In this document: positions 24,225 through 46,459 of the stretch, piece after piece | Position numbering within the stretch: position 1 is the stretch's first letter | Layout of the letters: every line of letters starts with the position of its first letter | From: a candidate division WOR-3 bacterium | GTDB taxonomy: Bacteria; Hydrothermota; Hydrothermia; JBDRYB01 | Assembly (NCBI GenBank): GCA_039803205.1 | Contig: JBDRYB010000003.1 | Coordinates: 32,001-96,000 of the forward strand | DNA: 64,000 bases | Direction of reading: 5' to 3' | Position numbers and translations under genes: made by a program | The notes under the pieces: model-generated | Told to the model about the DNA's origin: nothing | The model's database searches: none | What the model saw: only the letters and a program-made list of their open reading frames with translations

Positions 24225-25811
24225 CTATTCTCCGAAGGCTCTCTTTCTAAGTCTTCTGTAGTATTGCCTGTATTCATCAATGTAACGGTCATAAGGAAAT
24301 TCAGGCAAGAGATCGTCCACTGCTAGCTCCCGGGCCTTTGCCAGAAGCGATTCTTTTTCATCCTGCTCATGGGACGATTCGGATCTGACAACCAAGTTTT
24401 CCAGCTCGGAAAGGTCTGTCCAGACATCGCCCTCAAGCTGGTAAAAATCGTGCTTGTGCACAATGAGAACATTTCTATCAAGGACCCTCCTGGCAAAGGA
24501 TACTGCCTGATAAAGCAGTTCCCGGTTCTTCCTGTCATATCTCTTTCTAGGCCAGAGGAGGTAGAAGAGATGATCCGCAGCTATCCTGTGTTTTGAGGAC
24601 AGCAGGAGATAAATAAGAAACAAGGCTGATTTTCTGCTTCGCCATTCCAGAGGTTTTATTTCTTTCCCCTCCACATATATTCTTAGCTTTCCAATGAGAT
24701 AAGCCCTGATGCCCTTGTCTTTGTAGCTCTCTGATATTCCCGTCACCATAGGTTCCACCCTCAAGATGAACTCTCCGAGAATGGGGTCCTTTTTGGAATT
24801 AGGATATAGGGGGATGAGGTGGCCTATGAGTTTCAAAGATTTGGTAAAGACAGGGCTATCAGTTTCCCAGGCCAAATAGGCGGCAGTAAGGCCCGAGAAA
24901 AAGGCTTCTGTGTTCTGATAAGCCTTAATATAATTGTTCGTGGCCTCCAAAAGACCTTCTGCGGTTTCCAGATCACTTTCCTTAAGAAGTGCTTCGGCCT
25001 CTTGGGCCGCGGCTTGTTCAGCCCAGGCTCCCTTTCTTGCGAGTTTTATTGCTTTCCTTATGAGCGCTTTGGGCGGCGGCTCAAGTCCTGTAAGCCGAGA
25101 GATCTCAAGGGCCTTGGCCAGAGGGACAATTGCATAGACCGAACCAAAACTCAGATGCCCCTCAGCGGATTTCATAAAATAAACTATACTCTCGCGAAGC
25201 TCTCCTGCTATTCTCAAACAGATGGCTTTAATTTCCTCCAGGACGCAATAAAAGATGCCCTTCTTTTCACTTCTCATAAGCGCATCGGTCATCCTAATGG
25301 CTTTATGTGGGTTTCCGAAAAATAACTCATATATTATCAGATAATATTGAGCGGTTACGAGACGAATATCTCTGAGTTTCCCTTTGGATTTGATGCGGGA
25401 CACCTCACTAAAACAATCGCGGTATTTGCCTTTCATAAAAAGGATGTGGCAAAAAGCAAGAGAAATTGCGTCTTGTGAATCTTCATCACCCAGCTCTTGG
25501 GCGATATCTAGCGCTCTAAGATAATACCTTTCAGATAATTCCAGTTCTCCCAAATCTACATACGCGTTGCCCATCAACCTCAAAAGGTAAAGAGTTGAAG
25601 CAGGATCATCACTGAGACGACTGAGAAGCTGTTGACCCTTCTTGATGGTCTGAGTAAACATATTTTTGTTGATACATATCCCCACATTAGCCAAGGCAAA
25701 TGCTAAGGGATCATCCCTTTTGAGCCGCTCTAAATAGGCAACAAGCTTGTAGCTCATGCCTTCTAGCATGAACATCATGACAGCCTTCTTGGCCTTCTCG
25801 GCTCTGGTCAT
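24225..25811 (-). CDS. TPR-containing transcriptional regulator with C-terminal SARP-type winged-helix and partial BTAD domain
   Basis: TPR-like helices; C-terminal AYLIGKLRIYVEG...WRSRKS...IYLLL...LLWP...LYQAVSFARRVL...YQL...VWTDL...LLPEFPYD pattern of SARP/AfsR-like activators; visibly AT-rich. Confidence 0.72.
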   Translation of the reverse strand: MTRAEKAKKAVMMFMLEGMSYKLVAYLERLKRDDPLAFALANVGICINKNMFTQTIKKGQQLLSRLSDDPASTLYLLRLMGNAYVDLGELELSERYYLRALDIAQELGDEDSQDAISLAFCHILFMKGKYRDCFSEVSRIKSKGKLRDIRLVTAQYYLIIYELFFGNPHKAIRMTDALMRSEKKGIFYCVLEEIKAICLRIAGELRESIVYFMKSAEGHLSFGSVYAIVPLAKALEISRLTGLEPPPKALIRKAIKLARKGAWAEQAAAQEAEALLKESDLETAEGLLEATNNYIKAYQNTEAFFSGLTAAYLAWETDSPVFTKSLKLIGHLIPLYPNSKKDPILGEFILRVEPMVTGISESYKDKGIRAYLIGKLRIYVEGKEIKPLEWRSRKSALFLIYLLLSSKHRIAADHLFYLLWPRKRYDRKNRELLYQAVSFARRVLDRNVLIVHKHDFYQLEGDVWTDLSELENLVVRSESSHEQDEKESLLAKARELAVDDLLPEFPYDRYIDEYRQYYRRLRKRAFGE

Positions 25812-25896: not shown

Positions 25897-25970
25897 CACA
25901 AGGAACGCACCGGTTCTGTTTCAGCTCTGTTTCAGTTGATTCCGTAAATATAGGCCCGTATGCACGGAGG
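25897..25970 (+). promoter_or_regulatory. Left copy of duplicated promoter with GTTTCAG-N4-GTTTCAG direct repeats and GGAGG RBS
   Basis: CACAAGGAACGCACCGGTTCTGTTTCAGCTCTGTTTCAGTTGATTCCGTAAATATAGGCCCGTATGCACGGAGG, near-identical to the reverse complement of 37952-38026. Confidence 0.75.
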
Positions 25971-25979
25971 CATAGAATA

Positions 25980-26187
25980 ATGCAGATAACCTTGTTGGCA
26001 GCTCCTCAGACATGGAACGGTTGATATGGCTCCAAACAAACATGTATGCCTCCACTGCCCCAAACGGAGCAATGGTAGGCTTGTTCACCCCTGCAATCTC
26101 GCGGCAAGCGAGAACGGGATAAGCTTTGACTCTGGCGTCTATCTCTGGCACGCAGGGCCATATAAAGGAAAGGCAGTAGTGAGATGA
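25980..26187 (+). pseudogene. Collapsed remnant of secreted cargo genes (N-terminal stub plus orphan C-terminal domain)
   Basis: 25980-26024 encodes MQITLLAAPQTWNG*, resembling the start of 36347-37945 (MIKIILLIAQTWAPG); 26026-26187 ends in SNGRLV...FDSGVYLWHAGPYKGKAVVR*, the array's shared C-terminus. Confidence 0.75.
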
Positions 26188-26285
26188 AAACTATAGACCG
26201 GCTCCGGAACCTGCTCACCTCCTATTATGCCGGAGCCGGCCTATTTTTCTTTGAAAACGAAAACAACCTGGAGATTTTATCATGA
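26184..26285 (+). CDS. 33-aa linker ORF / hairpin element (diverged copy)
   Basis: MKTIDRLRNLLTSYYAGAGLFFFENENNLEILS*; ATGA overlap at both ends; stem CCGGCTCCGG/CCGGAGCCGG with CACCTCC in the loop. Confidence 0.55.
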   Translation: MKTIDRLRNLLTSYYAGAGLFFFENENNLEILS

Positions 26286-27820
26286 ACAACTTGCTGTTAG
26301 CTGTCATGGTTTCGCAGAACCTCTTCGCGAAGACCTATGGAGGGACGGGTAAGGAGTATGCCTATTCGGTAGCCAGGACCTCGGATGGCGGATATATAGT
26401 CGCTGGGGGCACGGCCAGCTACGGTGCTGGACAGGATGACTTCCTGGTCATCAAGATCTCGCCCACAGGAACCCCTGAATGGACAAGGACCTTCGGGGGA
26501 ACAAATATGGATGCCGCCTATTCCATAATCCAGACAACCGATGGGGGATATATGGTTGCTGGGGAAACCCGCAGTTTCGTGGCGGGAACCGCTGCTAACA
26601 TTGATTTTCTTGCGCTGAAGATCTCATCCACCGGAAACCCTGAGTGGGCAAGGACCTTTGGAGGAGCAAATGAGGATTTCTGTCGATCCATAATCCAGAC
26701 ATCAGATGGGGGATACGCACTTGTAGGGTTCACCAGAAGCTATGGTGTTGGGCTGGATGACTTTTTGATCATCAAAATCTCGTCTGCTGGGGCCCTTGAA
26801 TGGGCAAAGACATTCGGCGGAACGAATTATGATAATGCCTTCTCCATAGTACAGACCATAGACGGTGGTTATGTCGTTTCGGGTAGCACCATGAGCTTCG
26901 GGGCCGGCTACTGGGACCTTCTCTTGCTAAAGCTGTCGCCCACGGGAACCCTTGAGTGGGCGAGAACCTACGGGGGAGAAAATAATGACTTTACTACCTT
27001 ACCCGTGATACATACCGCTGACAGTGGTTTCATGTTCACGGGGCACACGGAGAGCTTTGGGGCCGGTGAAGCGGATCTGCTTGTCATGGAACTTTCGTCC
27101 ACCGGGGCTCCGGAGTGGACAAGAACCTTCGGAGGAACCGACTTGGATTGCGCTCGCTCTATAACCAGAACCGGGGATGGAGGGTTCGCGCTCGCAGGAT
27201 GGACATTGAGTTTTGGGGCTGGTTCTTGTGATTTCTTCATGATAAAGATTTCGTCCGCAGGAAGCCTTGAATGGGCAAGGACTTTCGGAGGGGAAGGTTG
27301 GGACGATCCCTTCTCTATGATCCAGACTCAGGATGGCGCCTACACGGTTGCAGGATGGACAACGGGCAGTTTTGATGGAAGTGACCCTGGCGATTTCCTT
27401 GTGATCAGGCTTGACCAGAACGGCAATTACCTGGATTGCATTCAGAGCTGTTCTCCTACCACAGGGCCAGCTTCCATTTCAATATCATCCCCTGGCGCGG
27501 ACCTTATTCCCTGTAATCCTTCTATAACCAACCCGAATCCAAGCGTCACGACTCCCGGACTTCAGGTATATGATGTCTGTCCACCCAGTTCTATTGAGGA
27601 GCCAGACAAAGTCCAAACATGGCCCCAGATCATTTGCGTATCTGATATAAGAGGGGTTATTTTCCATGCTTCCGGGGAAATGGAGATAAAGATCTACTCA
27701 TCCGATGGAAGGCTGTTCTGCTCCGAACAACTGCAGAGGGGACAGACCTCCATTCCTCTTGGCCAAGGAGTCTATCTCTGGCAAGCAGGACCCTATAAAG
27801 GAAAGGCTGTTGTAAGATGA
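26282..27820 (+). CDS. Secreted beta-propeller protein with conserved C-terminal domain
   Basis: Repeats of W.RTFGG...D...SI.QT.DGGY...G.T.S.G...DFL; Ser/Pro/Thr linker; ends GVYLWQAGPYKGKAVVR. Confidence 0.85.
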   Translation: MNNLLLAVMVSQNLFAKTYGGTGKEYAYSVARTSDGGYIVAGGTASYGAGQDDFLVIKISPTGTPEWTRTFGGTNMDAAYSIIQTTDGGYMVAGETRSFVAGTAANIDFLALKISSTGNPEWARTFGGANEDFCRSIIQTSDGGYALVGFTRSYGVGLDDFLIIKISSAGALEWAKTFGGTNYDNAFSIVQTIDGGYVVSGSTMSFGAGYWDLLLLKLSPTGTLEWARTYGGENNDFTTLPVIHTADSGFMFTGHTESFGAGEADLLVMELSSTGAPEWTRTFGGTDLDCARSITRTGDGGFALAGWTLSFGAGSCDFFMIKISSAGSLEWARTFGGEGWDDPFSMIQTQDGAYTVAGWTTGSFDGSDPGDFLVIRLDQNGNYLDCIQSCSPTTGPASISISSPGADLIPCNPSITNPNPSVTTPGLQVYDVCPPSSIEEPDKVQTWPQIICVSDIRGVIFHASGEMEIKIYSSDGRLFCSEQLQRGQTSIPLGQGVYLWQAGPYKGKAVVR

Positions 27821-27872: not shown

Positions 27873-29162
27873 TCATTCCCCTGGATTCAGGACGATCGTC
27901 CTCGTATCCACTATATTTCCATGAGATGAGAGGGCCAGGAAGCAAACGCCCTTACCTATGCCATCAAGGCTAATGGAGTGCCTTCCGGGTTCAAGAGACC
28001 AGGTTCTCAGTTCCCTGCCAATAGGATCATAAGCTGTCAGTTGGCCTGCCTTGGTAAGCCTGATTTCAACGGAAACAGTAGAGAGCATAACGATGCTGTT
28101 CTCCTTTGGCCCTGAACTCTCTCCAATCTCAAGGGGAGGGCATCCTCTGTGCGCGTAGTAGAGATCGCCAGACCTGTAATATGCTATCCTGGGGCAGTCA
28201 TCTGAGCCCACCTGAAGGCTCCTGTCTGTCATCCAGTAACCTGCCCATGTATTGGGGTCAGCAACCTCTATCGTCCAAGATGATCCATTCCACACAGCAT
28301 ATTTTAGCCTCTGGTTGGTCACATCGTAGTAGGCTATGTGCGGCCTGTCCTGGGAATCCAGGGCCAAAGAGGTATAACGCCCGACATCGCCCGCGGTGTC
28401 AACCGTCTGTATCTGCCAGGATGAGCCGTTCCAGTAGGCGTATTTGAGGTCCCGCTTGGCCGCTGATGAATCGTAGTAGGATATGTGGGGCCTGTCCTGG
28501 GAGTCAATAGCGATGGATGTCCAGAGGCCAACGGATCCAGCTGTGTCAACCTTCTGGGTCTGCCAGGATGAGCCATTCCAATAGGCGTATTTTAGATCAC
28601 GAGCACTGGCCCCGAAGCTGTAATAGGCTATGTGAGGCCTGTCTTGGGAATCCAGAGCCAAAGAGGTGCAAATCCCCAGTATATCTACCTGCTGTAGCAC
28701 CCATGCCGAGCCGTTCCAGTAGGCATACTGAATTATGCTGTAGCCATTATCAGAATAGGCTATGCACGGTCTATCCAGAGAATTAAGGGCCAGAGATGTC
28801 CAGAGCGTATTCCCTACGGTATCAACAGTCTGTCTCTGCCACGAGGAACCGTTCCAGTAAGCATACTTGAGATCCGAGTTCACGCCGTCTATCCAGTAGC
28901 TGTATGAGATGCACGGCCTATCCTGGGAATCCAGGTCCACAGAGACATAGCCACCAGAGGCGCTCCCTATGGTGTCAACCCTCTGCGTCTGCCACCCTGA
29001 GCCGGCCCATCTCGCGTATTTCACGCCATATGTTGTGAAATCGCAGTAGGCTATGTGCGGCCAGTCCTGAGAGTCCAGAGCCAGGGCCGCGTAGTAGCCA
29101 ACATCTCCAGGCGCGTCCACCTGGAGCCAGCTCCACTGAGCTAAAAAGAGCCATACCATCAT
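27873..29162 (-). CDS. Secreted beta-propeller repeat protein (second type) with C-terminal domain
   Basis: About six repeats of TSLALDSQDRPHIAYYD...LKYAYWNGSSWQ.QTVDT.G; start ATG 29162 after GGAGG. Confidence 0.8.
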   Translation of the reverse strand: MMVWLFLAQWSWLQVDAPGDVGYYAALALDSQDWPHIAYCDFTTYGVKYARWAGSGWQTQRVDTIGSASGGYVSVDLDSQDRPCISYSYWIDGVNSDLKYAYWNGSSWQRQTVDTVGNTLWTSLALNSLDRPCIAYSDNGYSIIQYAYWNGSAWVLQQVDILGICTSLALDSQDRPHIAYYSFGASARDLKYAYWNGSSWQTQKVDTAGSVGLWTSIAIDSQDRPHISYYDSSAAKRDLKYAYWNGSSWQIQTVDTAGDVGRYTSLALDSQDRPHIAYYDVTNQRLKYAVWNGSSWTIEVADPNTWAGYWMTDRSLQVGSDDCPRIAYYRSGDLYYAHRGCPPLEIGESSGPKENSIVMLSTVSVEIRLTKAGQLTAYDPIGRELRTWSLEPGRHSISLDGIGKGVCFLALSSHGNIVDTRTIVLNPGE

Positions 29163-29163
29163 C

Positions 29164-29358
29164 TTAAAAACCTCCTCGTTTAAGGTTTTTGTTTTCAAGG
29201 GAAACACGGGCTGACCGGAGGTCGTTCTGAAGAACGAGCCGTTCCGGCCGATACCCCTGTATTTTCTCGCACAGGGTCGCGGCAAACACGATCATTCCCA
29301 GCATAATCCCAGTATGAATTATCACGAATGGGTTTGCGAGCCTTTCCCTTATATTCAT
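29164..29358 (-). CDS. Extended (64-aa) linker ORF
   Basis: Starts by ATGA overlap with the upstream stop, carries the LENKN / TTGAAAACAAAAAC motif and a GC-rich hairpin with ACCTCC, stops 1 nt before the next ATG. Confidence 0.5.
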   Translation of the reverse strand: MNIRERLANPFVIIHTGIMLGMIVFAATLCEKIQGYRPERLVLQNDLRSARVSLENKNLKRGGF

Positions 29359-30881
29359 CTCACAACCGCCTTTCCTTTATATGGCCCTGCCTGCCATAGA
29401 TAGACGCCAGGATCAAGGGGGATGCGGGTTTGGCCCGCGATTAGATGTGTTGAAGAGGACAGGCGGCCATCCGGAGAATATATTTTCAATTCGGCCTCAG
29501 CTGTCGCATTGAAAATGAGAGCATGGGAAACTGGAAAACAGATCACTTCTGCGTCAAACCCGGCAGTCTCATCAACGCTTTCATAGACAGGGGCACAGAT
29601 ATTGACTGATAGTGGTGTAATTGGTGGCGTCACAGAAATACCGGGGGTTCCGGTGGAGTGAGTCCATGGGGATGGGGACACGGAAAGATTTGAGGTAGCA
29701 AAAGTGGGAGTGACGAGACCCGGAGATTGATCAAGCACACACCCAGAATAGGTTCCGTCTGCGGCTGTTCTAAGCAGAAACCCATCCCTTTGGTTAAAGT
29801 CAAAGGTGGTGCCAGCGATCGCAAGACTGCCATCCGGGAGCTGGAGGACAGAAAAAGCCCTCTCCCAACCTAAGGCATTGAATGTCTTTGTCCAAAACAA
29901 ACTCCCGTCGGCTGAGCTGAACTTCATGATCTGAGCCTCGTCCCCAAACGGAGGTAGAATTTTCGTTTTGCCCACGACCACGAACCCTTCATCTGCCGTT
30001 TGGATTATGGAGTTGCCAATTTCCTGTACGCCTGTCGTTGTTTTTGCCCAGGAAAGGTTTCCAAGAGAGTTTGTCCTGATAACCATAAGTCTTGGTATAT
30101 CCGCGAGATCAGGATCCGTCGCACCGGTTATGGCAAATCCACCATCCGAGGTTGGGACTACGGATAGGCCCACATCAAATATTGAATGATTTCCGTCAAC
30201 CATACCGTAGAAGGCTTTTGCTCTTCCTACGGATCCATCGGGGTTCAATACCAGTAACAGGGTGGCATTCTCTAAGGTAAAATCAATGTATTCCCCGGTA
30301 AAAACATAGCCGTCATCGTATGTCTGGGTCATGAATACATCCTGGGCCCGTGTATTGTATGACTTAGCCCAGCTTTCGTTTCCGGCCGCGGTAAGCTTGA
30401 GAAGCAGTATATTGGAATTATCAGACCCTCCTACTGCGTATCCCCCGACCCCTGGGGTCTCAATTACGGACCTGGCTTCTTCCCAACCCGAGGTTCCAAA
30501 GGTCTTCGCCCATGAAATATTTCCATCCTGATCCAGCCTCAGTACGAGCATATCTCTTGAACCAGCGCCGAAACTCTCTGTGTAACCAGCTATAACAAAG
30601 CCTCCGTCATCTGTGCATATCACAGACCAAGCGCCGTCATTATTTGCTCCTCCGTATGCCTTGGCCCATTGGATATTTTTGCCATCCGAGGTTAACACAA
30701 CGAGTAAAGCATCCGTGCCTCCGGCACCATAACTATTCGTTGTTCCCGCCAACGCAAAACCTCCACTGCCAGGCATCCGTGCCACGGAGTAGATGTATTC
30801 ATCACCCGTTGTCCAACCATAAGTTTTAGCAAATAGCGTCAAGGCCACAAGCACATCCATCATTATAAAGAGCCCTGTCAT
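29355..30881 (-). CDS. Secreted beta-propeller protein with conserved C-terminal domain
   Basis: Same repeat type; ends GQTRIPLDPGVYLWQAGPYKGKAVVR. Confidence 0.85.
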   Translation of the reverse strand: MTGLFIMMDVLVALTLFAKTYGWTTGDEYIYSVARMPGSGGFALAGTTNSYGAGGTDALLVVLTSDGKNIQWAKAYGGANNDGAWSVICTDDGGFVIAGYTESFGAGSRDMLVLRLDQDGNISWAKTFGTSGWEEARSVIETPGVGGYAVGGSDNSNILLLKLTAAGNESWAKSYNTRAQDVFMTQTYDDGYVFTGEYIDFTLENATLLLVLNPDGSVGRAKAFYGMVDGNHSIFDVGLSVVPTSDGGFAITGATDPDLADIPRLMVIRTNSLGNLSWAKTTTGVQEIGNSIIQTADEGFVVVGKTKILPPFGDEAQIMKFSSADGSLFWTKTFNALGWERAFSVLQLPDGSLAIAGTTFDFNQRDGFLLRTAADGTYSGCVLDQSPGLVTPTFATSNLSVSPSPWTHSTGTPGISVTPPITPLSVNICAPVYESVDETAGFDAEVICFPVSHALIFNATAEAELKIYSPDGRLSSSTHLIAGQTRIPLDPGVYLWQAGPYKGKAVVR

Positions 30882-30979
30882 GTTAAAGCCTCCGTATGGT
30901 TTTTGTTTTCAAAGCAAATGCAGGCCGGCCGGGTTTTAACGGGAGGTGCAGAGATCCCCGGCCGGCCCTTTGTTTTCAT
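30878..30979 (-). CDS. 33-aa linker ORF / hairpin element
   Basis: MKTKGRPGISAPPVKTRPACICFENKNHTEALT*; ATGA overlap at both ends; 11-bp stem GGCCGGCCGGG/CCCGGCCGGCC. Confidence 0.55.
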   Translation of the reverse strand: MKTKGRPGISAPPVKTRPACICFENKNHTEALT

Positions 30980-31057
30980 CTTACCACTGCCTTTCCTTTA
31001 TATGGCCCCGCTTGCCACAGATAGACGCCGGGATCAAGGGGGATGCGGGTTTGGCCC
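30878..31057 (-). repeat. ~180-bp direct repeat unit (3' end of cargo gene plus linker), copy 1
   Basis: Near-identical to 32487-32665 and 34108-34285; the gene-end part also recurs at 29355-29436. Confidence 0.9.
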
Positions 31058-32490
31058 TTCTTGAGCTCCCCGGAGTAAGCGAGACGGCCATCGGCTCCGT
31101 ATATCCTTAAATCAATATCTTCCCATAGGCTAAAAAGAAGGCCTCCGGAAACAAGAGAACAGGTTATCCTGTCTTTCAACACTGCGGCCTCGTTTTCTCG
31201 TGCGTCAAGGGGGGCACAGAGATCTGTCACAATGAGTGTGGGCGCAGTTATTACTGGGCTTGCAGCTCCCATGGACGGGATATAATTCACTCCCACAGAA
31301 CGGGAAGAAGTGTTCGGAGACCAGGCATTGATAGAGGGCGAACAAGAGCTCACACATCCAGGATAATCCCCATTACCGTCCACCTTTAGGAGGAGAAATC
31401 CTTGATCAACATACCCCATAATAGCAAGATCCCCATCCTGGGTTGGAATTATGCAATTAGCGCCATCATCGCTTGATGTCCCAAAGGTTCTGGCTCCCAA
31501 AAGGTTTCCAGAAGCATCCAGCTTGACAACGAAGAAATCCTCACCACCTATACCAAAACTCTTCGTACCTCCAGCGATCACGAGATCGCCATCCTGAGTC
31601 TGCATTATAGATCTCCCGTCATCGTCGTTCACGCCACCTATGGTTTTGGCCCAAGAAAGAGAACCATCCGAAGCTAGTTTGAGCACGAAGAGATCATGCC
31701 CTCCAACACCGGAGCTCTGTGTATGTCCTGTGATTACAAAGCCGCCGTCAAAGGTCTGGATTATAGCTGTGGGACAACCTGGCTCTTCATCGCTTGAACC
31801 CCCAAAGGTCCTAGCCCATATGGGAGAACCATTTGAGTTCAACCTGAGTATAAGTAAATCACTGCCGCCCACGGTAAAACTTCTTGTCCATCCTGCGACC
31901 GCAAAACCGCCATCTGTTGTTTGAACTATGGAGTGGGCTATGTCTTGATTTGTTCCCCCATAGGTCCAGGCCCACATAAAGTTCCCATTCGCATCCGTCT
32001 TGAGCACAAAGAAATCGTAACTCCCAGCGCCGGAACTGGAAGTGAATCCAGCCACCACAAGACCGTTGTCCGCAGTTAAGACTGCAGAGTGAGCCTGATC
32101 ATATCCGTCTCCGCCGAAGGTCTTATACCACTGAAGGTCGCCGCTGGAATTAAACTTGGAAATAAAGAGGTTCTCATCTCCAAAGCTATATGTCTCGCCC
32201 ACGATCGCGAACCCGTTGTCACTGGTCTGAACTATGCAGTGACTGTGATCGAATCTGGTCCCTTGTATTACCTGGGCCCAAGTTATGTTTCCGGATGGGT
32301 TCATTTTGAACACTAGGCAATCCGTACCATCTCCAAGCCCAAGATCAATCGGTCTCGTAACCAAGTAGCCACCATCAGTGGTTTGGATGACAGAGCCTGC
32401 GTAGTATTCAATGCCCGTCATGTCTTCTACAGACCTAGCGAACTTACCCTGCGCCAAGAGCGCGCTTGTGGTGATAAAAAAGCATGTCAT
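30976..32490 (-). CDS. Secreted beta-propeller protein with conserved C-terminal domain
   Basis: Same repeat type; ends GQTRIPLDPGVYLWQAGPYKGKAVVR. Confidence 0.85.
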   Translation of the reverse strand: MTCFFITTSALLAQGKFARSVEDMTGIEYYAGSVIQTTDGGYLVTRPIDLGLGDGTDCLVFKMNPSGNITWAQVIQGTRFDHSHCIVQTSDNGFAIVGETYSFGDENLFISKFNSSGDLQWYKTFGGDGYDQAHSAVLTADNGLVVAGFTSSSGAGSYDFFVLKTDANGNFMWAWTYGGTNQDIAHSIVQTTDGGFAVAGWTRSFTVGGSDLLILRLNSNGSPIWARTFGGSSDEEPGCPTAIIQTFDGGFVITGHTQSSGVGGHDLFVLKLASDGSLSWAKTIGGVNDDDGRSIMQTQDGDLVIAGGTKSFGIGGEDFFVVKLDASGNLLGARTFGTSSDDGANCIIPTQDGDLAIMGYVDQGFLLLKVDGNGDYPGCVSSCSPSINAWSPNTSSRSVGVNYIPSMGAASPVITAPTLIVTDLCAPLDARENEAAVLKDRITCSLVSGGLLFSLWEDIDLRIYGADGRLAYSGELKKGQTRIPLDPGVYLWQAGPYKGKAVVR

Positions 32491-32588
32491 GATGAAACCT
32501 CCGTATGGTTTTTGTTTTCAAGGCAAATGTGGGCCGGCCGGGTTTTAACGGGAGGTGCAGAGATTCCCGACCGGCCCTTGGTTTTCAT
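32487..32588 (-). CDS. 33-aa linker ORF / hairpin element
   Basis: MKTKGRSGISAPPVKTRPAHICLENKNHTEVSS*; ATGA overlap at both ends; stem carries a C>T change that keeps a G-U pair. Confidence 0.55.
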   Translation of the reverse strand: MKTKGRSGISAPPVKTRPAHICLENKNHTEVSS

Positions 32589-32665
32589 CTCACAACCGCC
32601 TTTCCTTTATATGGCCCTGCCTGCCATAGATAGACGCCAGAATCAAGGGGGATGCGGGTCTGACC
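32487..32665 (-). repeat. ~180-bp direct repeat unit, copy 2
   Basis: Direct comparison with 30878-31057 and 34108-34285. Confidence 0.9.
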
Positions 32666-34111
32666 TTTTTCCAGGTTATCTGAGATGGCCACGCGGCCAT
32701 CGGCCGAGTAGAGCTTTATGGGCAGGGCCTCGTTGGATACGAAGAGAACACCACCGGTGACCGGCGAACAGGTTATCCAGCCATGAGAGCCAGGATTGAT
32801 CTCCTCAACATGCTCGTAAAGGGGCTGGCAGACATCGGTTACTGTCGGCGCGGAAGCCGTAGTGATGAAATCCAGGTTTGTGGTGGTATGAGTCCAAGCG
32901 GGAGCAGAGATACTGAGATCTGGCGTCAGAAAATCGGGGGTCCCCAGGGGCGGCACCTGATCAACTACACAGTCGGAATAATCCCCGTTTCCGTCCATCT
33001 TCAGAAAAGCAATATCATGCTCTCCGACGGGAATGTTGAATGTGTTTCCCGCGACCGCGAACCCCCCGTCCGGTGTCAGAATTATGGACTGGGCGTGGTC
33101 ATCAACAGTCGCGTTGAAAGTCCTGGACCACAGGACGCCACCGGTTACATTGTCCATTTTCATGATCAGGAAATCATTGTTCATGGTTCTTGTGTGCCCT
33201 GCGGCCACGAGTCCCCCGTCCGAGGTCTGGACTATGGATGTGGCGTAATCGTGTATGCCTGTCGCTACCGTTGCCCAGGAGAGATCACCGTCGGAATCTG
33301 TTTTCATGACCATAAACATCGGCAGATCCCCCACGAAATTGCCTACTTCCGTTATGCCAGCGACCGTAAAACCCCCATCAGAGGTCTGGATTATGAAGTT
33401 GCCCTGATCAGCCCAGGTGTGAAGTCCGCCAACCATCCCAAAAAAGAACCTCGTCCAGAGGACAGACCCATCCGGATTCAGCCTAAGGATAGGGATGGCA
33501 TTATCGCTGTATATCGCGTCTTCATAGATCACCCCCGTGATAGCATATCCGCCATCGCTTGTTTGAACTATGGAATAGGCCTCTCCTAACCATCCCGGCC
33601 CATAATAATATCTTGCCCAGTTCGTATTTCCATCAGCGTCAAGCCTGAGGGCAATCAGGTTATTACCCCATGCCCCTATGGCATAGCCTCCGTCCGTGGT
33701 TCTGATTATGGAGCGCCCCTCCTCGTAGGTCGCTCCTGCTCCATAGGTCTTTGCCCAGGATAGGTCTCCGTCAGGTTCCAGCTTGAGAACCAATATGTTC
33801 CTTCTTGGGCCAGCATAACGCGTGGTGCCTCCGGTGACGACAAACCCGCCATCTGTCGCCTGGACTATGGAATATCCCACATCAACGCTTGTGTCGCCGT
33901 ATGCCTTGGCCCACACGAGGTTCCCGTTCGGATCCAGCCTGATGACCAAGACATCATCTCCACCAGCGCCAAACGCCTGCGTGGTTCCGGCGAGCGCGAA
34001 CCCGCCGTCCGTGGTCTGGACCACGGAGTAGATGTAGTCATCGCCTGTCCATCCATAGGTCTTCGCGAAAAGGTTCTGCGAGACCAGCACAGATACTATT
34101 AAGGTGTTCAT
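32585..34111 (-). CDS. Secreted beta-propeller protein with conserved C-terminal domain
   Basis: Same repeat type, closest to 29355-30881 (FAKTYGWT, GMV.G.H); ends GQTRIPLDSGVYLWQAGPYKGKAVVR. Confidence 0.85.
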   Translation of the reverse strand: MNTLIVSVLVSQNLFAKTYGWTGDDYIYSVVQTTDGGFALAGTTQAFGAGGDDVLVIRLDPNGNLVWAKAYGDTSVDVGYSIVQATDGGFVVTGGTTRYAGPRRNILVLKLEPDGDLSWAKTYGAGATYEEGRSIIRTTDGGYAIGAWGNNLIALRLDADGNTNWARYYYGPGWLGEAYSIVQTSDGGYAITGVIYEDAIYSDNAIPILRLNPDGSVLWTRFFFGMVGGLHTWADQGNFIIQTSDGGFTVAGITEVGNFVGDLPMFMVMKTDSDGDLSWATVATGIHDYATSIVQTSDGGLVAAGHTRTMNNDFLIMKMDNVTGGVLWSRTFNATVDDHAQSIILTPDGGFAVAGNTFNIPVGEHDIAFLKMDGNGDYSDCVVDQVPPLGTPDFLTPDLSISAPAWTHTTTNLDFITTASAPTVTDVCQPLYEHVEEINPGSHGWITCSPVTGGVLFVSNEALPIKLYSADGRVAISDNLEKGQTRIPLDSGVYLWQAGPYKGKAVVR

Positions 34112-34209
34112 GTTAAAGCCTCCGTATGGTTTTTGTTTTCAAACAAAATGCAGGCCGGCCGGGTTTTAACGGGAGGTGCAGAGATCCCCGGCCGGCCCTT
34201 TGTTTTCAT
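34108..34209 (-). CDS. 33-aa linker ORF / hairpin element
   Basis: MKTKGRPGISAPPVKTRPACILFENKNHTEALT*; ATGA overlap at both ends. Confidence 0.55.
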   Translation of the reverse strand: MKTKGRPGISAPPVKTRPACILFENKNHTEALT

Positions 34210-34285
34210 CTCACAACCGCCTTTCCTTTATATGGTCCCGCTTGCCAGAGATAGACGCCAGGATCAAGGGGGATGCGGGTTTGGC
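34108..34285 (-). repeat. ~180-bp direct repeat unit, copy 3
   Basis: Direct comparison with the other two copies. Confidence 0.9.
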
Positions 34286-36329
34286 TAGGTCCTAGGAGTC
34301 CGGAGAAAAATAACCTGCCATCAGGGAGATATAGTCTAAGGAGGCTCTCTTTTTCGGAGGCAAAGATTAGCCCACCGGATACAGGAATACAAGTTATCCC
34401 TCCGGGGTGGTTATACGGATCATCTTGATAGTAATCCATCGGGGAGCATATACTTAAGGTGCTTAGACTAACAGAAGTCATAGAGGGTGCTATCGTGACG
34501 ACATATGGTGTGTATGACTTTCCTGTGTTAACATTCTCATCTACGACAGGTATATTTGTGAGGGTAGCCTGTTGCCAGTCCATAATACAGCCCGCGTAAT
34601 CCTGACTCGCATTTACCTTTAGTACGAGCAGGTCGTAGCTAGAGGCATAGCTATTAGAGTATCCCAGAACAGCAAATCCTCCGTCGTCGGTTATAGATAT
34701 ACTCAAGGATATGTCCGAGTTTGCCCCACCAAGCTTTTTGACCCATAGGAGGTTGCCGCCGCCGTCGATCTTAATTATGAAGATGTCATCGCTAAGACCC
34801 GAGAAAGAGCCAGTTACTATAAGATTGTCACCGTCTACACTAGTAGACCCATACACATTGGTAGCAGAGAGATATTTTGCCCAGATGGGGTCACCCACGG
34901 CATTCGTTCTAAGTATAACCACATAAGGGCTTCCGGTATTCATCTCGCCGGTAAATATGTATCCCCCATCCGGCATCTGAGCTATATCCACCACGCCCTC
35001 TTGGTATGAGCCAAAATCATAAGTTTTTATCCATTCGGTAGCGCCAGATGAGCTAAGCTTAACCACGAAGAAGTTCCAGGGGTTCGAACCGAAATATCTC
35101 GTATATCCTCCGAGGATATAACCCCCGTCGCTTGTTTGCCTTATTCTCCATAGTCCATCGTGATTGCTTGATCCGAAGGCCCGAGCCCATTCTATATTGC
35201 TGTTTTGATCCGGCTTGTAGATAGCTCCATCCCAGCATCCGTAGCCCCAATCATCGGACCACACAGAACCGCCATCGCTGGTAAGGATAAGCGAGTTGCC
35301 GTTGCTTCCGCCCGTTGGCCCGAATACCTTTTTGCTCCATATGTGGTTCCCGGAAAGATCGTAACGGAAAAGCCAAGCATCCCATGTGCTCGTTGAAGTG
35401 TTCCAGAGATAACCGGCCGCTGTAAGATTTCCGTCAGAGGTTTGCACGATCCCCCTCACATAGTCCGCGCCAGCCGCGCCAAGAACCCTTGTCCAGATTT
35501 GATTTCCTGAGGCGTCAAACCTGGAGATCATTGCGTCGCCGTTTCCGACGCCCCAGCTATCGGTTCTGCATCCTACCACAAAGCCATCGTCTGATGTCCG
35601 AGTTACATTTGGAAAGATGTAGTCATCGTTTGGGCCCCCTATTGTTCTGTTCCAGAGCAGATTACCAGATTTGTCAAACCTGCAGATGAGGGTTTCCCAG
35701 CCTCCCGCACCTACTCCGGTTATACTACCGACAGCAACTACCCCGCTATCGGGTGTTGCTGCTATTCCGCGTCCTTCAGCTGCTTGGCCCGATAGGCCTA
35801 TACATCTCGTCCATTGATGGTTCCCTGCCGAGTCAAGCTTTACAACTATAAGGCTACTGAAGGTACTGGGACCAAAGCTCCACGAGCTCCCGACTATAGC
35901 AAAGCCATTATCGGCGGTTTTGATAATGCCACCCGCTTCATCAGCGTTAGTGCCTCCAATTGTTTTTGCCCAAAGAAGATTCCCGTTGGGATCAAGCTTG
36001 GCTATCAGAATATCGCGGTTGCCAGCACCCCATAAGGATGTGTAAGCGGTCACCGCAAAGCCGCCATCGGATGCTAGGGTCATGTATGAGCCCCAATCAT
36101 TTGGGCCACCCTCTATCATCCTGCTCCAAATATGATTTCCCAGGCTGTCAAACCTAGAGACTATGGAGCCATAGCCAAAGCTTATTGCGTGTCCGGATAA
36201 GGCGTAACCATTGTCAGGGGTCTGGACGACCGAGAATGCCCTATCGTAATTTGTCCCCCCGAGAACACTGATGAAGTTAACCTGTTGCGCTTGGCTTATC
36301 CCCGTAATGAACAGCATAACCTTTTTCAT
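34206..36329 (-). CDS. Long secreted beta-propeller protein with conserved C-terminal domain
   Basis: More repeats than its neighbours (707 aa); ends SQTRIPLDPGVYLWQAGPYKGKAVVR. Confidence 0.85.
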   Translation of the reverse strand: MKKVMLFITGISQAQQVNFISVLGGTNYDRAFSVVQTPDNGYALSGHAISFGYGSIVSRFDSLGNHIWSRMIEGGPNDWGSYMTLASDGGFAVTAYTSLWGAGNRDILIAKLDPNGNLLWAKTIGGTNADEAGGIIKTADNGFAIVGSSWSFGPSTFSSLIVVKLDSAGNHQWTRCIGLSGQAAEGRGIAATPDSGVVAVGSITGVGAGGWETLICRFDKSGNLLWNRTIGGPNDDYIFPNVTRTSDDGFVVGCRTDSWGVGNGDAMISRFDASGNQIWTRVLGAAGADYVRGIVQTSDGNLTAAGYLWNTSTSTWDAWLFRYDLSGNHIWSKKVFGPTGGSNGNSLILTSDGGSVWSDDWGYGCWDGAIYKPDQNSNIEWARAFGSSNHDGLWRIRQTSDGGYILGGYTRYFGSNPWNFFVVKLSSSGATEWIKTYDFGSYQEGVVDIAQMPDGGYIFTGEMNTGSPYVVILRTNAVGDPIWAKYLSATNVYGSTSVDGDNLIVTGSFSGLSDDIFIIKIDGGGNLLWVKKLGGANSDISLSISITDDGGFAVLGYSNSYASSYDLLVLKVNASQDYAGCIMDWQQATLTNIPVVDENVNTGKSYTPYVVTIAPSMTSVSLSTLSICSPMDYYQDDPYNHPGGITCIPVSGGLIFASEKESLLRLYLPDGRLFFSGLLGPSQTRIPLDPGVYLWQAGPYKGKAVVR

Positions 36330-45910: not shown

Positions 45911-46459
45911 CTATACCCTCTCTATGTAGCGGTCATCCCGGGTGTCTATTCTGACCGTGTCCCCAACCTCTATGAATAGAGGAACCTGGATTATGAGGCC
46001 CGTTTCAAGCTTGGCTGGTTTTGAGCCGCCTGAGGCTGTGTCCCCCTTAACACCAGGGGTGGTTTCTATTACCTTGAGCTCAACGAAGTTCGGAGGCTCA
46101 ACGCTCGCTGGAGAGTTGTCTATGTAAAGAAGGTTGACCTCGGTTCCCTCCTTGATGTATGGGAGGATTGAGCTGATGGCAGACCTCGGGAACCTCACCT
46201 CCTCGTATGTCTCGTTGTTGAAGAAGACCATGTCCTCTCCGGCCGCGTAAGAGAAAACCCCTGGAAACCGCTCAACCCTGAGCTCCTCAAACTCATCCGA
46301 TTCCCTTATGGTAACCTCCCTGACTGCTCCGGTGAGGAGGTTGCGCAATTTCGCTGTCATGGTAGCCCCGCCTCTGCCCTTGTGGGTGTGTTTGAATGAC
46401 ATAACGATCCAGGTCTCGCCCTGCCACCTCAGAGCCATCCCAGTTCTTATCTCAGGCAT
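45911..46459 (-). CDS. efp: Elongation factor P
   Basis: PGVKGDTASGGSKPAKLETG, QVPLFI, IDTR; tip loop HKGRGGA. Confidence 0.95.
   Translation of the reverse strand: MPEIRTGMALRWQGETWIVMSFKHTHKGRGGATMTAKLRNLLTGAVREVTIRESDEFEELRVERFPGVFSYAAGEDMVFFNNETYEEVRFPRSAISSILPYIKEGTEVNLLYIDNSPASVEPPNFVELKVIETTPGVKGDTASGGSKPAKLETGLIIQVPLFIEVGDTVRIDTRDDRYIERV

Follow-up and report, generated by a model that had tools for sequence, protein, structure and literature searches.

The window analysed here, a stretch of 64,000 nucleotides (nt) from the genome of a candidate division WOR-3 bacterium (contig JBDRYB010000003.1), carries four copies of a GC-rich hairpin that stands in the spacers of a beta-propeller gene array and presents in its loop the heptamer CACCUCC, a 7-nt copy of the anti-Shine-Dalgarno (anti-SD) sequence of 16S rRNA. 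Comparison of the copies at the level of sequence establishes a lineage-specific family of mRNA hairpins, in both its structure and its RNA sense, with at least 32 sense copies in this genome; a 33rd, degenerate copy is also visible. The element occurs in two contexts. Terminal copies (n = 14) have no gene start close downstream, while linker copies (n = 18) are followed by a gene that starts 20-42 nt past the end of the covariance model, and most linkers are crossed by a short open reading frame (ORF), here called the relay ORF, that opens at the stop codon of the upstream gene and runs through the hairpin. We consider it somewhat probable that the element is a cis-acting, terminator-derived hairpin, which would block both read-through and independent initiation unless ribosomes translating the relay ORF melt it.

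The first-pass annotation of the window had described a stem with a 23-nt loop at 30.9 and 34.1 kb, a G·U-compatible variant at 32.5 kb and a compensated stem at 26198-26239, all of which are confirmed: the four hairpins have GC stems of 11-13 bp and loops of 22-23 nt that hold CACCTCC. The genes around the 30.9-kb hairpin lie on the minus strand, and the RNA sense is minus for three window copies and plus for the copy at 26.2 kb. Copy 1 (30922-30968, minus strand) has a core at 30923-30967 with the arms GGCCGGCCGGG and CCCGGCCGGCC and a 23-nt loop, and a G·U pair between 30968 and 30922 lengthens its GC stem to 12 pairs; the stem is present in the minimum free energy (MFE) fold, and the copy scores 69.4 bits with the covariance model described below. 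Its loop core lies at 30942-30948 (minus), the SD region ACGGAGG of the next gene at 30889-30895 (minus), and its relay ORF of 33 codons at 30878-30979 (minus), the ATG overlapping the upstream TGA and the ORF's own TGA overlapping the downstream ATG. Read in the gene sense, the 95-nt spacer behind gene 30976-32490 consists of AGATGA, AAACAAAG, the first arm, the 23-nt loop gaucucuGCACCUCCCGuuaaaa, the second arm and ugcauuugcuuUGAAAACAAAAACCAUACGGAGGcuuuaacAUGA. The two neighbouring copies, both covariance-model matches, differ from copy 1 by few changes. In copy 2 (32531-32577, minus) one C>T change keeps a G·U pair, and copy 3 (34152-34198, minus) forms the same hairpin as copy 1; their relay ORFs, again of 33 codons (32487-32588 and 34108-34209, minus), have ATGA at either end. 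Copy 4 (26198-26239, plus strand) has the compensated stem CCGGCTCCGG/CCGGAGCCGG, then cctatttttc, and a relay ORF of 33 codons (26184-26285, plus) likewise bounded by ATGA.

Family members were located by BLAST and a whole-genome hairpin scan, and a covariance model was then built from 16 copies. This model returned 38 matches in the genome, from which 6 antisense echoes and 2 hairpins lacking the loop motif were subtracted and to which 2 copies seen only in the hairpin scan were added, giving the total of 32. A MAFFT alignment of 28 copies misregistered those with short stems (RNAalifold recovered 5 pairs), and long-stem subsets with hand-checked structure were used; 12 short-stem or irregular copies of this genome lie outside the long-stem alignment. 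In the 16-copy alignment from this genome, 95.7% of 208 cells are paired and both partners change in 8 of 13 pairs, as the first-pass annotation had anticipated in calling the stem covarying. In none of 500 shuffles was either the pairing or the covariation score as high as observed, and the slid controls were 24-56% paired. A 24-copy alignment spanning three genomes, with 11 copies from two related genomes, gave the same picture (94.9% of 312 cells paired, 8 of 13 pairs double-sided, 0 of 500 shuffles). Since G·U cells in the stem outnumber A·C cells by 15 to 3, what is selected is the sense-strand RNA, and neither double-stranded DNA nor the opposite strand.

The family's stems are GC-rich, very stable and 10-15 pairs long, with loops of 19-32 nt. 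The loop consensus is (G)CACCUCC(CG), and CACCTCC, present in all four window loops as the first-pass annotation had it, is exact in 28 of the 32 copies. The genome's own 16S rRNA ends in ...GGATCACCTCCTTTTAC (GGAUCACCUCCUUUUAC), of which the loop core repeats 7 nt. While the stem and the loop flanks vary, this core is invariant in terminal and linker copies alike. Partition-function folds predict CCUCC to be 93% unpaired at both 37 and 65 °C, and the predicted mean MFE changes from -28 kcal/mol at 37 °C to -16.5 kcal/mol at 65 °C, leaving the hairpins still stable at the higher temperature. A candidate SD sequence on the opposite strand was considered and rejected: the complement GGGAGGTG lacks a start codon at a suitable spacing.

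The placement of the element is nearly uniform. Thirty-one of the 32 copies start 1-33 nt past the stop codon of an ORF with a sorting-like C-terminal tail, two of these ORFs being collapsed remnants (65-66 codons, counted between stops). The one copy placed otherwise, at C4:122184, belongs to a family gene's 5' leader. Terminal copies follow a TAA stop in 13 of 14 cases, and linker copies behind a tail ORF follow TGA in 16 of 17, against a genome-wide stop usage of 47% TGA and 21% TAA. The terminal stems are shorter (type CCCCGGCCGG), and their consensus is that of the genome's ordinary terminators, which have GCCCCGGCC-type stems and loops of 3-8 nt. A run of at least four T within 12 nt follows 13 of the 14 terminal copies, mostly from the foot of the stem, versus 8 of the 18 linker copies. 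The terminal copies thus resemble intrinsic terminators, a likeness that fits either ancestry or function. The idea, already voiced in the first-pass annotation, that the stem and T tract end transcription suits these copies well, yet at the 30.9-kb copy for which it was proposed the terminator feature is weak, the T-rich tract behind the window stems being interrupted (tgcatttgcttt). The loop sets the family apart: CCTCC is found in 0 of 36 terminator-type hairpins with 3-8 nt loops and in 13 of 28 with 17-32 nt loops, and a terminator scan of the window under the 3-8 nt loop rule misses these hairpins.

Several side observations concern the surroundings of terminal copies. These copies are often followed by the 11-nt repeat boxes and TATAAT of the next unit. 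A recurrent motif, CAAC(C/T)TTGACAC(C/T)(A/T)AAACCCTGAT..., stands behind the last hairpin or gene of several arrays (C1:239413-239470 and downstream of C21_+_9402 and C16_-_2897 in this genome, G000; L054 in the related genome G002; metagenome loci L197 and L200); it includes a TTGACA and is a possible promoter region for the unit that follows. Two convergent tail-bearing genes have a copy between them at C2:134970-135028, which could act as a bidirectional terminator for the pair.

In the linkers, the stop codon is embedded in ATGA in 14 of the 16 TGA cases, preceded by the codon AGA in 13 and AAA in 1, although AGA makes up 18% of the genome's arginine codons and AGG 52%. The frames that open at this ATG are 29-36 codons long in this genome and run through the hairpin. 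Eighteen ATGA linkers have an intact gene downstream (14 in this genome, 4 in the related genomes G001 and G002); the relay frame stops no more than 7 nt from the next start in 17 of them, compared with 2 of 18 for the +2 control frame, and the overlap is an exact ATGA in 12. Exact overlaps occur at five linker lengths (86, 95, 98, 101 and 107 nt), all of them 2 mod 3. In metagenome contigs, 3 of 4 linkers retain the frame, and two carry an insertion of 21-24 nt before the hairpin, giving relay ORFs of 39 and 42 codons. That the linker ORF is crossed by ribosomes, as the first-pass annotation had surmised, is therefore strongly indicated by frame conservation. Stop-codon choice, U-run and ORF presence all divide by context, and the hairpin and the relay ORF form one module.

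The open frame and the conserved ends of the relay ORF could also mean that the peptide of 29-42 residues is itself the functional product. This we judge to be extremely improbable. The peptides share little beyond their ends, the same loop nucleotides are read in all three phases (...SAPP..., ...CTSR..., ...LHLPF...) and terminal copies have no ORF. Because the frame is kept while the peptides diverge and the phases differ, it is translation across the hairpin, not its product, that is conserved. A selenocysteine, read-through or frameshift signal at the UGA was likewise considered and set aside: terminal copies use TAA, and neither a slippery site nor a conserved extension frame was seen.

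That the relay ORF is translated, that transcription ends at the hairpin and that the loop pairs with any SD sequence are inferences, and on this basis the terminator-derived hairpin could work as follows. The element would have originated as the terminator of a single-gene unit and, at the end of a transcription unit, its stem and immediate U-run would still act as an intrinsic terminator. After tandem duplication, copies caught between genes would have lost part of the U-run and gained a relay ORF. Ribosomes finishing the upstream gene would restart at the overlapping ATGA, cross and melt the hairpin, stop on the ATGA of the next gene and restart there. When the upstream gene is poorly translated, the hairpin would form and, where a U-run persists, end or pause transcription; its anti-SD loop would be offered either to its own mRNA's SD or to the SD of the gene that follows, about 45 nt downstream, and free ribosomes would be blocked. 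The outcome would be expression of downstream paralogues strictly tied to that of the upstream one. One review (PMC12548453) presents RNA-unfolding and reinitiation models of translational coupling that match such a relay, and another (PMC8876359) describes a short ORF in integron attC sites that relieves a stem-loop block by termination-reinitiation.

Six points weigh against this mechanism. Loops of 19-32 nt are untypical of intrinsic terminators. In one linker (C5:43980) the relay frame continues 65 nt into the next gene. The copies are related by descent and the joints between genes evolve in concert, so that the counts given above exceed the number of independent events. The predicted duplex between loop and next SD has a mean energy of -7.6 kcal/mol, versus -8.4 kcal/mol for the same loops against 200 other SD-bearing starts, a comparison in which loop extraction was uneven owing to inner pairs that the MFE adds. 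The loop core is equally conserved in the 14 copies without a downstream gene. Finally, 109 of the 137 tail-bearing ORFs in the genome have no hairpin behind them, and many tandem genes of the family are joined by plain junctions of 12-35 nt, which makes the element optional.

The first-pass annotation had further supposed that the loop pairs with the ribosome-binding site of the next gene and had suggested a pseudoknot or attenuator. Pairing with the next ribosome-binding site is plausible but is not specifically supported, given the duplex energies above; since terminal copies keep the loop core, the role of the loop cannot be limited to such pairing. With both loop and SD near-invariant, covariation between the two cannot be read. 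No pseudoknot emerged, and the alternative hairpins of a classical attenuator are absent. The SDs of the carrier genes themselves, among them GGAGGTG(C) and GGAGGTGC, are complementary to the loop, a complementarity that is generic, and pairing with the mRNA's own SD is possible. Two precedents bear on this: a UCCCCUG motif in the icaR 3' untranslated region (UTR) of Staphylococcus aureus pairs with the SD of its own mRNA (PMC3868564), and aSD-like 8-mers in Bacillus subtilis repress from hundreds of nucleotides away (PMC12697547).

A partner acting in trans is equally possible as a target of the loop, and a reading built on it takes the loop as a tag for an RNA-binding protein, or as part of 3'UTR-derived anti-SD small RNAs, in a post-transcriptional regulon of exported tail-bearing proteins. 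As a full account of the element we think this unlikely. It would explain a loop core that stays invariant in both contexts, an element common to four unrelated protein families that share only their tail, and a loop that pairs equally well with the next gene's SD and with the SDs of random genes. In S. aureus, small RNAs act in this manner through C-rich loops (PMC3868564). The relay ORF, however, is left unexplained, and a search for a G-rich partner produced none: the exact 10-nt loop complement occurs 7 times outside the hairpins, where about 4 are expected by chance (an estimate), with one occurrence in a 5' leader. In a more pointed form, which seems to us decidedly unlikely, the anti-SD loop would be an address label shared by about 30 mRNAs of the four families and read by one trans partner, either a protein or the SDs of other mRNAs meeting processed hairpins. 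Were that so, the translation or stability of the whole secreted repertoire could be switched together, and the relay ORFs would be a secondary adaptation to operons. The leader with the 10-nt complement is that of a TonB-dependent receptor gene (663 aa; C7:18187-18214), where CGGGAGGTGC stands just after TATAAT and ahead of the gene's own GAAGGAGG; as one of seven such 10-mers, it may be due to chance.

The element could instead be mobile, a palindrome of the repetitive extragenic palindrome (REP) type or of the MITE type (miniature transposable elements with inverted repeats) that inserts behind stop codons at a TGAAAAC-like target and whose internal ORF is harmless in operons, as has been suggested for mycobacterial interspersed repetitive units (MIRUs). 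The TGAAAAC direct repeats noticed in the first-pass annotation do flank all four window copies, and the stem arms could count as terminal inverted repeats. At C14 ~45970-46013, the junction AGATGAAAACAAAACC...ATGA is what a single copy of the repeat would leave, and the related locus C16:41783 has a hairpin. In MIRUs, an ORF is coupled to the adjacent gene (PMC12548453). Outside the window, though, the direct repeats are degenerate in most linkers and absent at terminal copies; 31 of 32 copies stand behind one gene class with none dispersed elsewhere; and stems compensated from copy to copy, with tolerance for G·U, fit selection on RNA in place and not active copying. The genome has a single Y1 transposase gene (C13:5325-5945), and the palindromic repeat that forms arrays on its two sides is a different one, so that kinship with REPs, part of what the first-pass annotation had named as a threat to novelty, draws no support from this gene. 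On balance a mobile origin has a small probability in our estimate.

Two of these loci merit description in their own right. The hairpin-less junction at C14 ~45970-46013, AGATGAAAACAAAACCACTAAGGAGATTTTATCATGA, joins the same two gene types as the hairpin linker at C16:41783-41841, and the pair is compatible with either insertion or deletion. At C13:5100-6250, tandem arrays border the Y1 transposase (PF01797, similar to REP-associated tyrosine transposases, RAYT; a frame of 206 codons) on either side; their repeat unit, about 60 nt long, holds the palindrome CCCAGGGC-ACAGG-GGCCCTGGG. The arrangement looks like a system of REPs or bacterial interspersed mosaic elements (BIMEs), unrelated to the anti-SD-loop hairpin.

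The joints of the three tandem window copies, which extend from the last ~80 nt of a gene across the spacer into the first codons of its successor, are 88-100% identical, as opposed to 27-72% for the gene bodies. The three copies are for this reason not independent, and the contrast indicates concerted evolution of the joints. It could also be read as the mark of a recombination joint at the DNA level, in which the stretch from the tail codons through the hairpin linker to the following gene's first codons serves to duplicate, delete and shuffle propeller cassettes and the hairpin is incidental. Collapsed genes that leave only a tail between two hairpins (window 26026-26187; locus L061 of G001) would agree with this, as would the searches of G001 and G002, in which queries that extended a joint by 400-500 nt into the gene body on either side found no orthologous junction and matched mostly joints, implying that arrays turn over fast. 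Homologous recombination at any conserved stretch would nonetheless account for the mosaics, and the asymmetry of G·U over A·C together with the conserved relay frame points to the RNA level. The attC sites of integrons are imperfect inverted repeats with R and L boxes (GTTRRRY core), extrahelical bases and a variable centre. Here the stems pair in 95% of cells with no bulges or extrahelical bases and no GTTRRRY core at the stem foot, and the loop is conserved and the stem variable, the opposite of attC. No integron integrase appeared in a Pfam scan of 16 neighbouring proteins, which was not a search aimed at integrases. A dedicated recombination joint is in our view very unlikely.

The carriers of the hairpin share a tail and little else. 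Genome-wide, 137 of 1785 long ORFs (7.7%) bear the tail, a very large share for a genome of 2.3 Mb, and 28 of the 137 could be matched to a hairpin. By their N-terminal parts, which are unrelated from group to group, these carriers form four groups (of 14, 11, 2 and 1 members), and the hairpin is accordingly linked to the tail class and not to one paralogue family. The window paralogues are all beta-propeller proteins (DUF5122, delta-60 or SBBP repeats) with the common C-terminal tail ...GVYLWQAGPYKGKAVVR. The T9SS type A sorting domain TIGR04183 scores below its cut-off in them (best 16.4 bits versus 23, for one of five window paralogues), as does PF18962 on another neighbouring protein (22.8 versus 27), and in view of these sub-threshold scores we call the tail only sorting-like.

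Within the window, the minus-strand array begins with a 707-aa beta-propeller gene with the sorting-like tail (34206-36329), the upstream partner of copy 3, and continues with paralogues of 508 aa (32585-34111), 504 aa (30976-32490, upstream partner of copy 1) and 508 aa (29355-30881, its downstream partner). Between the last of these and gene 27873-29285 lies a relay-like ORF of 64 codons (29164-29358, minus) that opens in ATGA at the upstream stop and ends in TAA-G-ATG, with 1 nt between its TAA and the next start codon. Within this ORF lie a divergent hairpin (~29213-29249) with CCUCC in the 3' arm and the hydrophobic stretch GIMLGMIVFAATL, and in its C-terminal ...ENKN... the ORF is similar to the relay ORFs of 33 codons. 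The whole window gene array is chained by such short ORFs. On the plus strand, copy 4 precedes a 512-aa paralogue (26282-27820). A remnant ORF of 53 codons (26026-26187, plus), of which only the C-terminal tail ...GVYLWHAGPYKGKAVVR is left, runs into relay ORF 4, and copy 4 therefore lies in the 5' leader of that paralogue. The same leader (25915-26285, plus) has two TCTGTTTCAG boxes spaced 11 nt apart (25915-25935) and, downstream of them, GGAGG with an ORF of 14 codons (25980-26024), the tail remnant and the relay ORF, all abutting. Its divergent neighbour (24225-25811) encodes a protein that resembles a tetratricopeptide repeat (TPR) regulator.

The family appears to be confined to one genus. 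The covariance model gave 15 matches in G001 and 9 in G002, the other two genomes of the genus, counting antisense echoes, and in a search of 213 genomes in all, made up of overlapping sets of 61 relatives and 151 genomes from across the phylum, none outside the genus proved to hold a true member. Weak matches in G009, G014, G029, G091 and G159 were rejected as plain hairpins, or no hairpin at all, with the loop motif absent. A strict pattern scan of metagenome contigs found 13 loci with an identical layout throughout; a pattern scan of genome contigs gave at least 116 loci, nearly all of them single chance matches in high-GC genomes, and is uninformative on distribution. Rfam 15 yielded no match on the whole window at the gathering threshold, and the best sub-threshold match on 30860-31000 scored 20.1 bits against a cut-off of 60 (E 0.38). 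The checks proposed in the first-pass annotation thus led to a covarying family without an Rfam match and confined to its genus among the genomes searched. At four loci of G001 (L053, L058, L061 and L065), a long-stem and a short-stem hairpin stand in tandem, 20-80 nt apart; at L061 only the last tail codons (...YKGKAVVR) remain between the two, so that a whole gene has been deleted between two joints.

If the proposed mechanism holds, the element would unite a terminator hairpin, an anti-SD decoy and a throw-away relay ORF with a double ATGA overlap in a natural module that spans about 100 nt, occurs in many copies and chains paralogous genes for exported proteins. The roughly 60 natural variants over genomes and metagenomes could then serve as a comparative system for how a short ORF controls hairpin read-through and the restart at the next gene, and for asking whether an exposed copy of the 16S 3' end in mRNA acts on ribosome-binding sites. 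The module could also lend itself to transfer, as a design for coupling translation strictly at high temperature. Its practical reach is narrow, as the family has been seen only in one uncultured hot-spring genus among the genomes searched.

Among known systems, intrinsic terminators are close to the terminal copies, with a GC stem right after the stop codon, a U-run in 13 of 14 cases and the stem consensus of the genome's ordinary terminators. They differ in their loops of 3-8 nt, against 19-32 nt with an invariant core of 7-10 nt here, and the U-runs of linker copies are weak or displaced and lie inside an ORF. REP and BIME sequences stabilise upstream mRNA in operons, as between malE and malF of Escherichia coli, and have small loops, hundreds of dispersed copies and a cognate RAYT. 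As intercistronic GC palindromes, the hairpins described here could similarly shield upstream mRNA from 3' exonucleases and set relative expression; unlike REPs, they have large loops and follow one gene class, and the genome's RAYT-like gene is flanked by the other repeat of ~60 nt.

The icaR 3'UTR (PMC3868564) and the aSD-like repressors of B. subtilis (PMC12697547) share with the family a pyrimidine-rich, anti-SD-like motif past the coding sequence that is complementary to SDs of the same mRNA. By comparison, the motif here sits in a loop right after the stop codon, occurs about 30 times per genome and has a 7-nt identity to the 16S end, and any pairing by it is putative. The short ORFs of integron attC sites (PMC8876359) likewise lie between tandem genes and overlap a ribosome-hindering stem-loop; they begin at the upstream stop, keep the stem from forming and pass ribosomes on to the following gene by termination-reinitiation. 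The present element has no R or L boxes, no extrahelical bases and no visible integron surroundings, conserves the loop and not the stem foot, and connects chromosomal paralogues with SDs of their own. MIRUs (PMC12548453) are repeated intergenic units whose ORF ends overlap the stop and start codons of their neighbours by 4 nt, keeping up the translation of the operon, but they are scattered over operons that have no relation to one another and show tandem-repeat variation, whereas the hairpin family is tied to one gene class and has a covarying stem and a conserved loop. The MIRU type of coupling, with exact overlaps at both ends, is found in 12 of the 18 linkers, a likeness in the manner of working only, with no relation in sequence and a different distribution. 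No description of the element was found in open-access full text on related architectures. Its ingredients are known singly; neither Rfam nor the papers found have them combined in a conserved family of many copies whose 16S-like loop is invariant.

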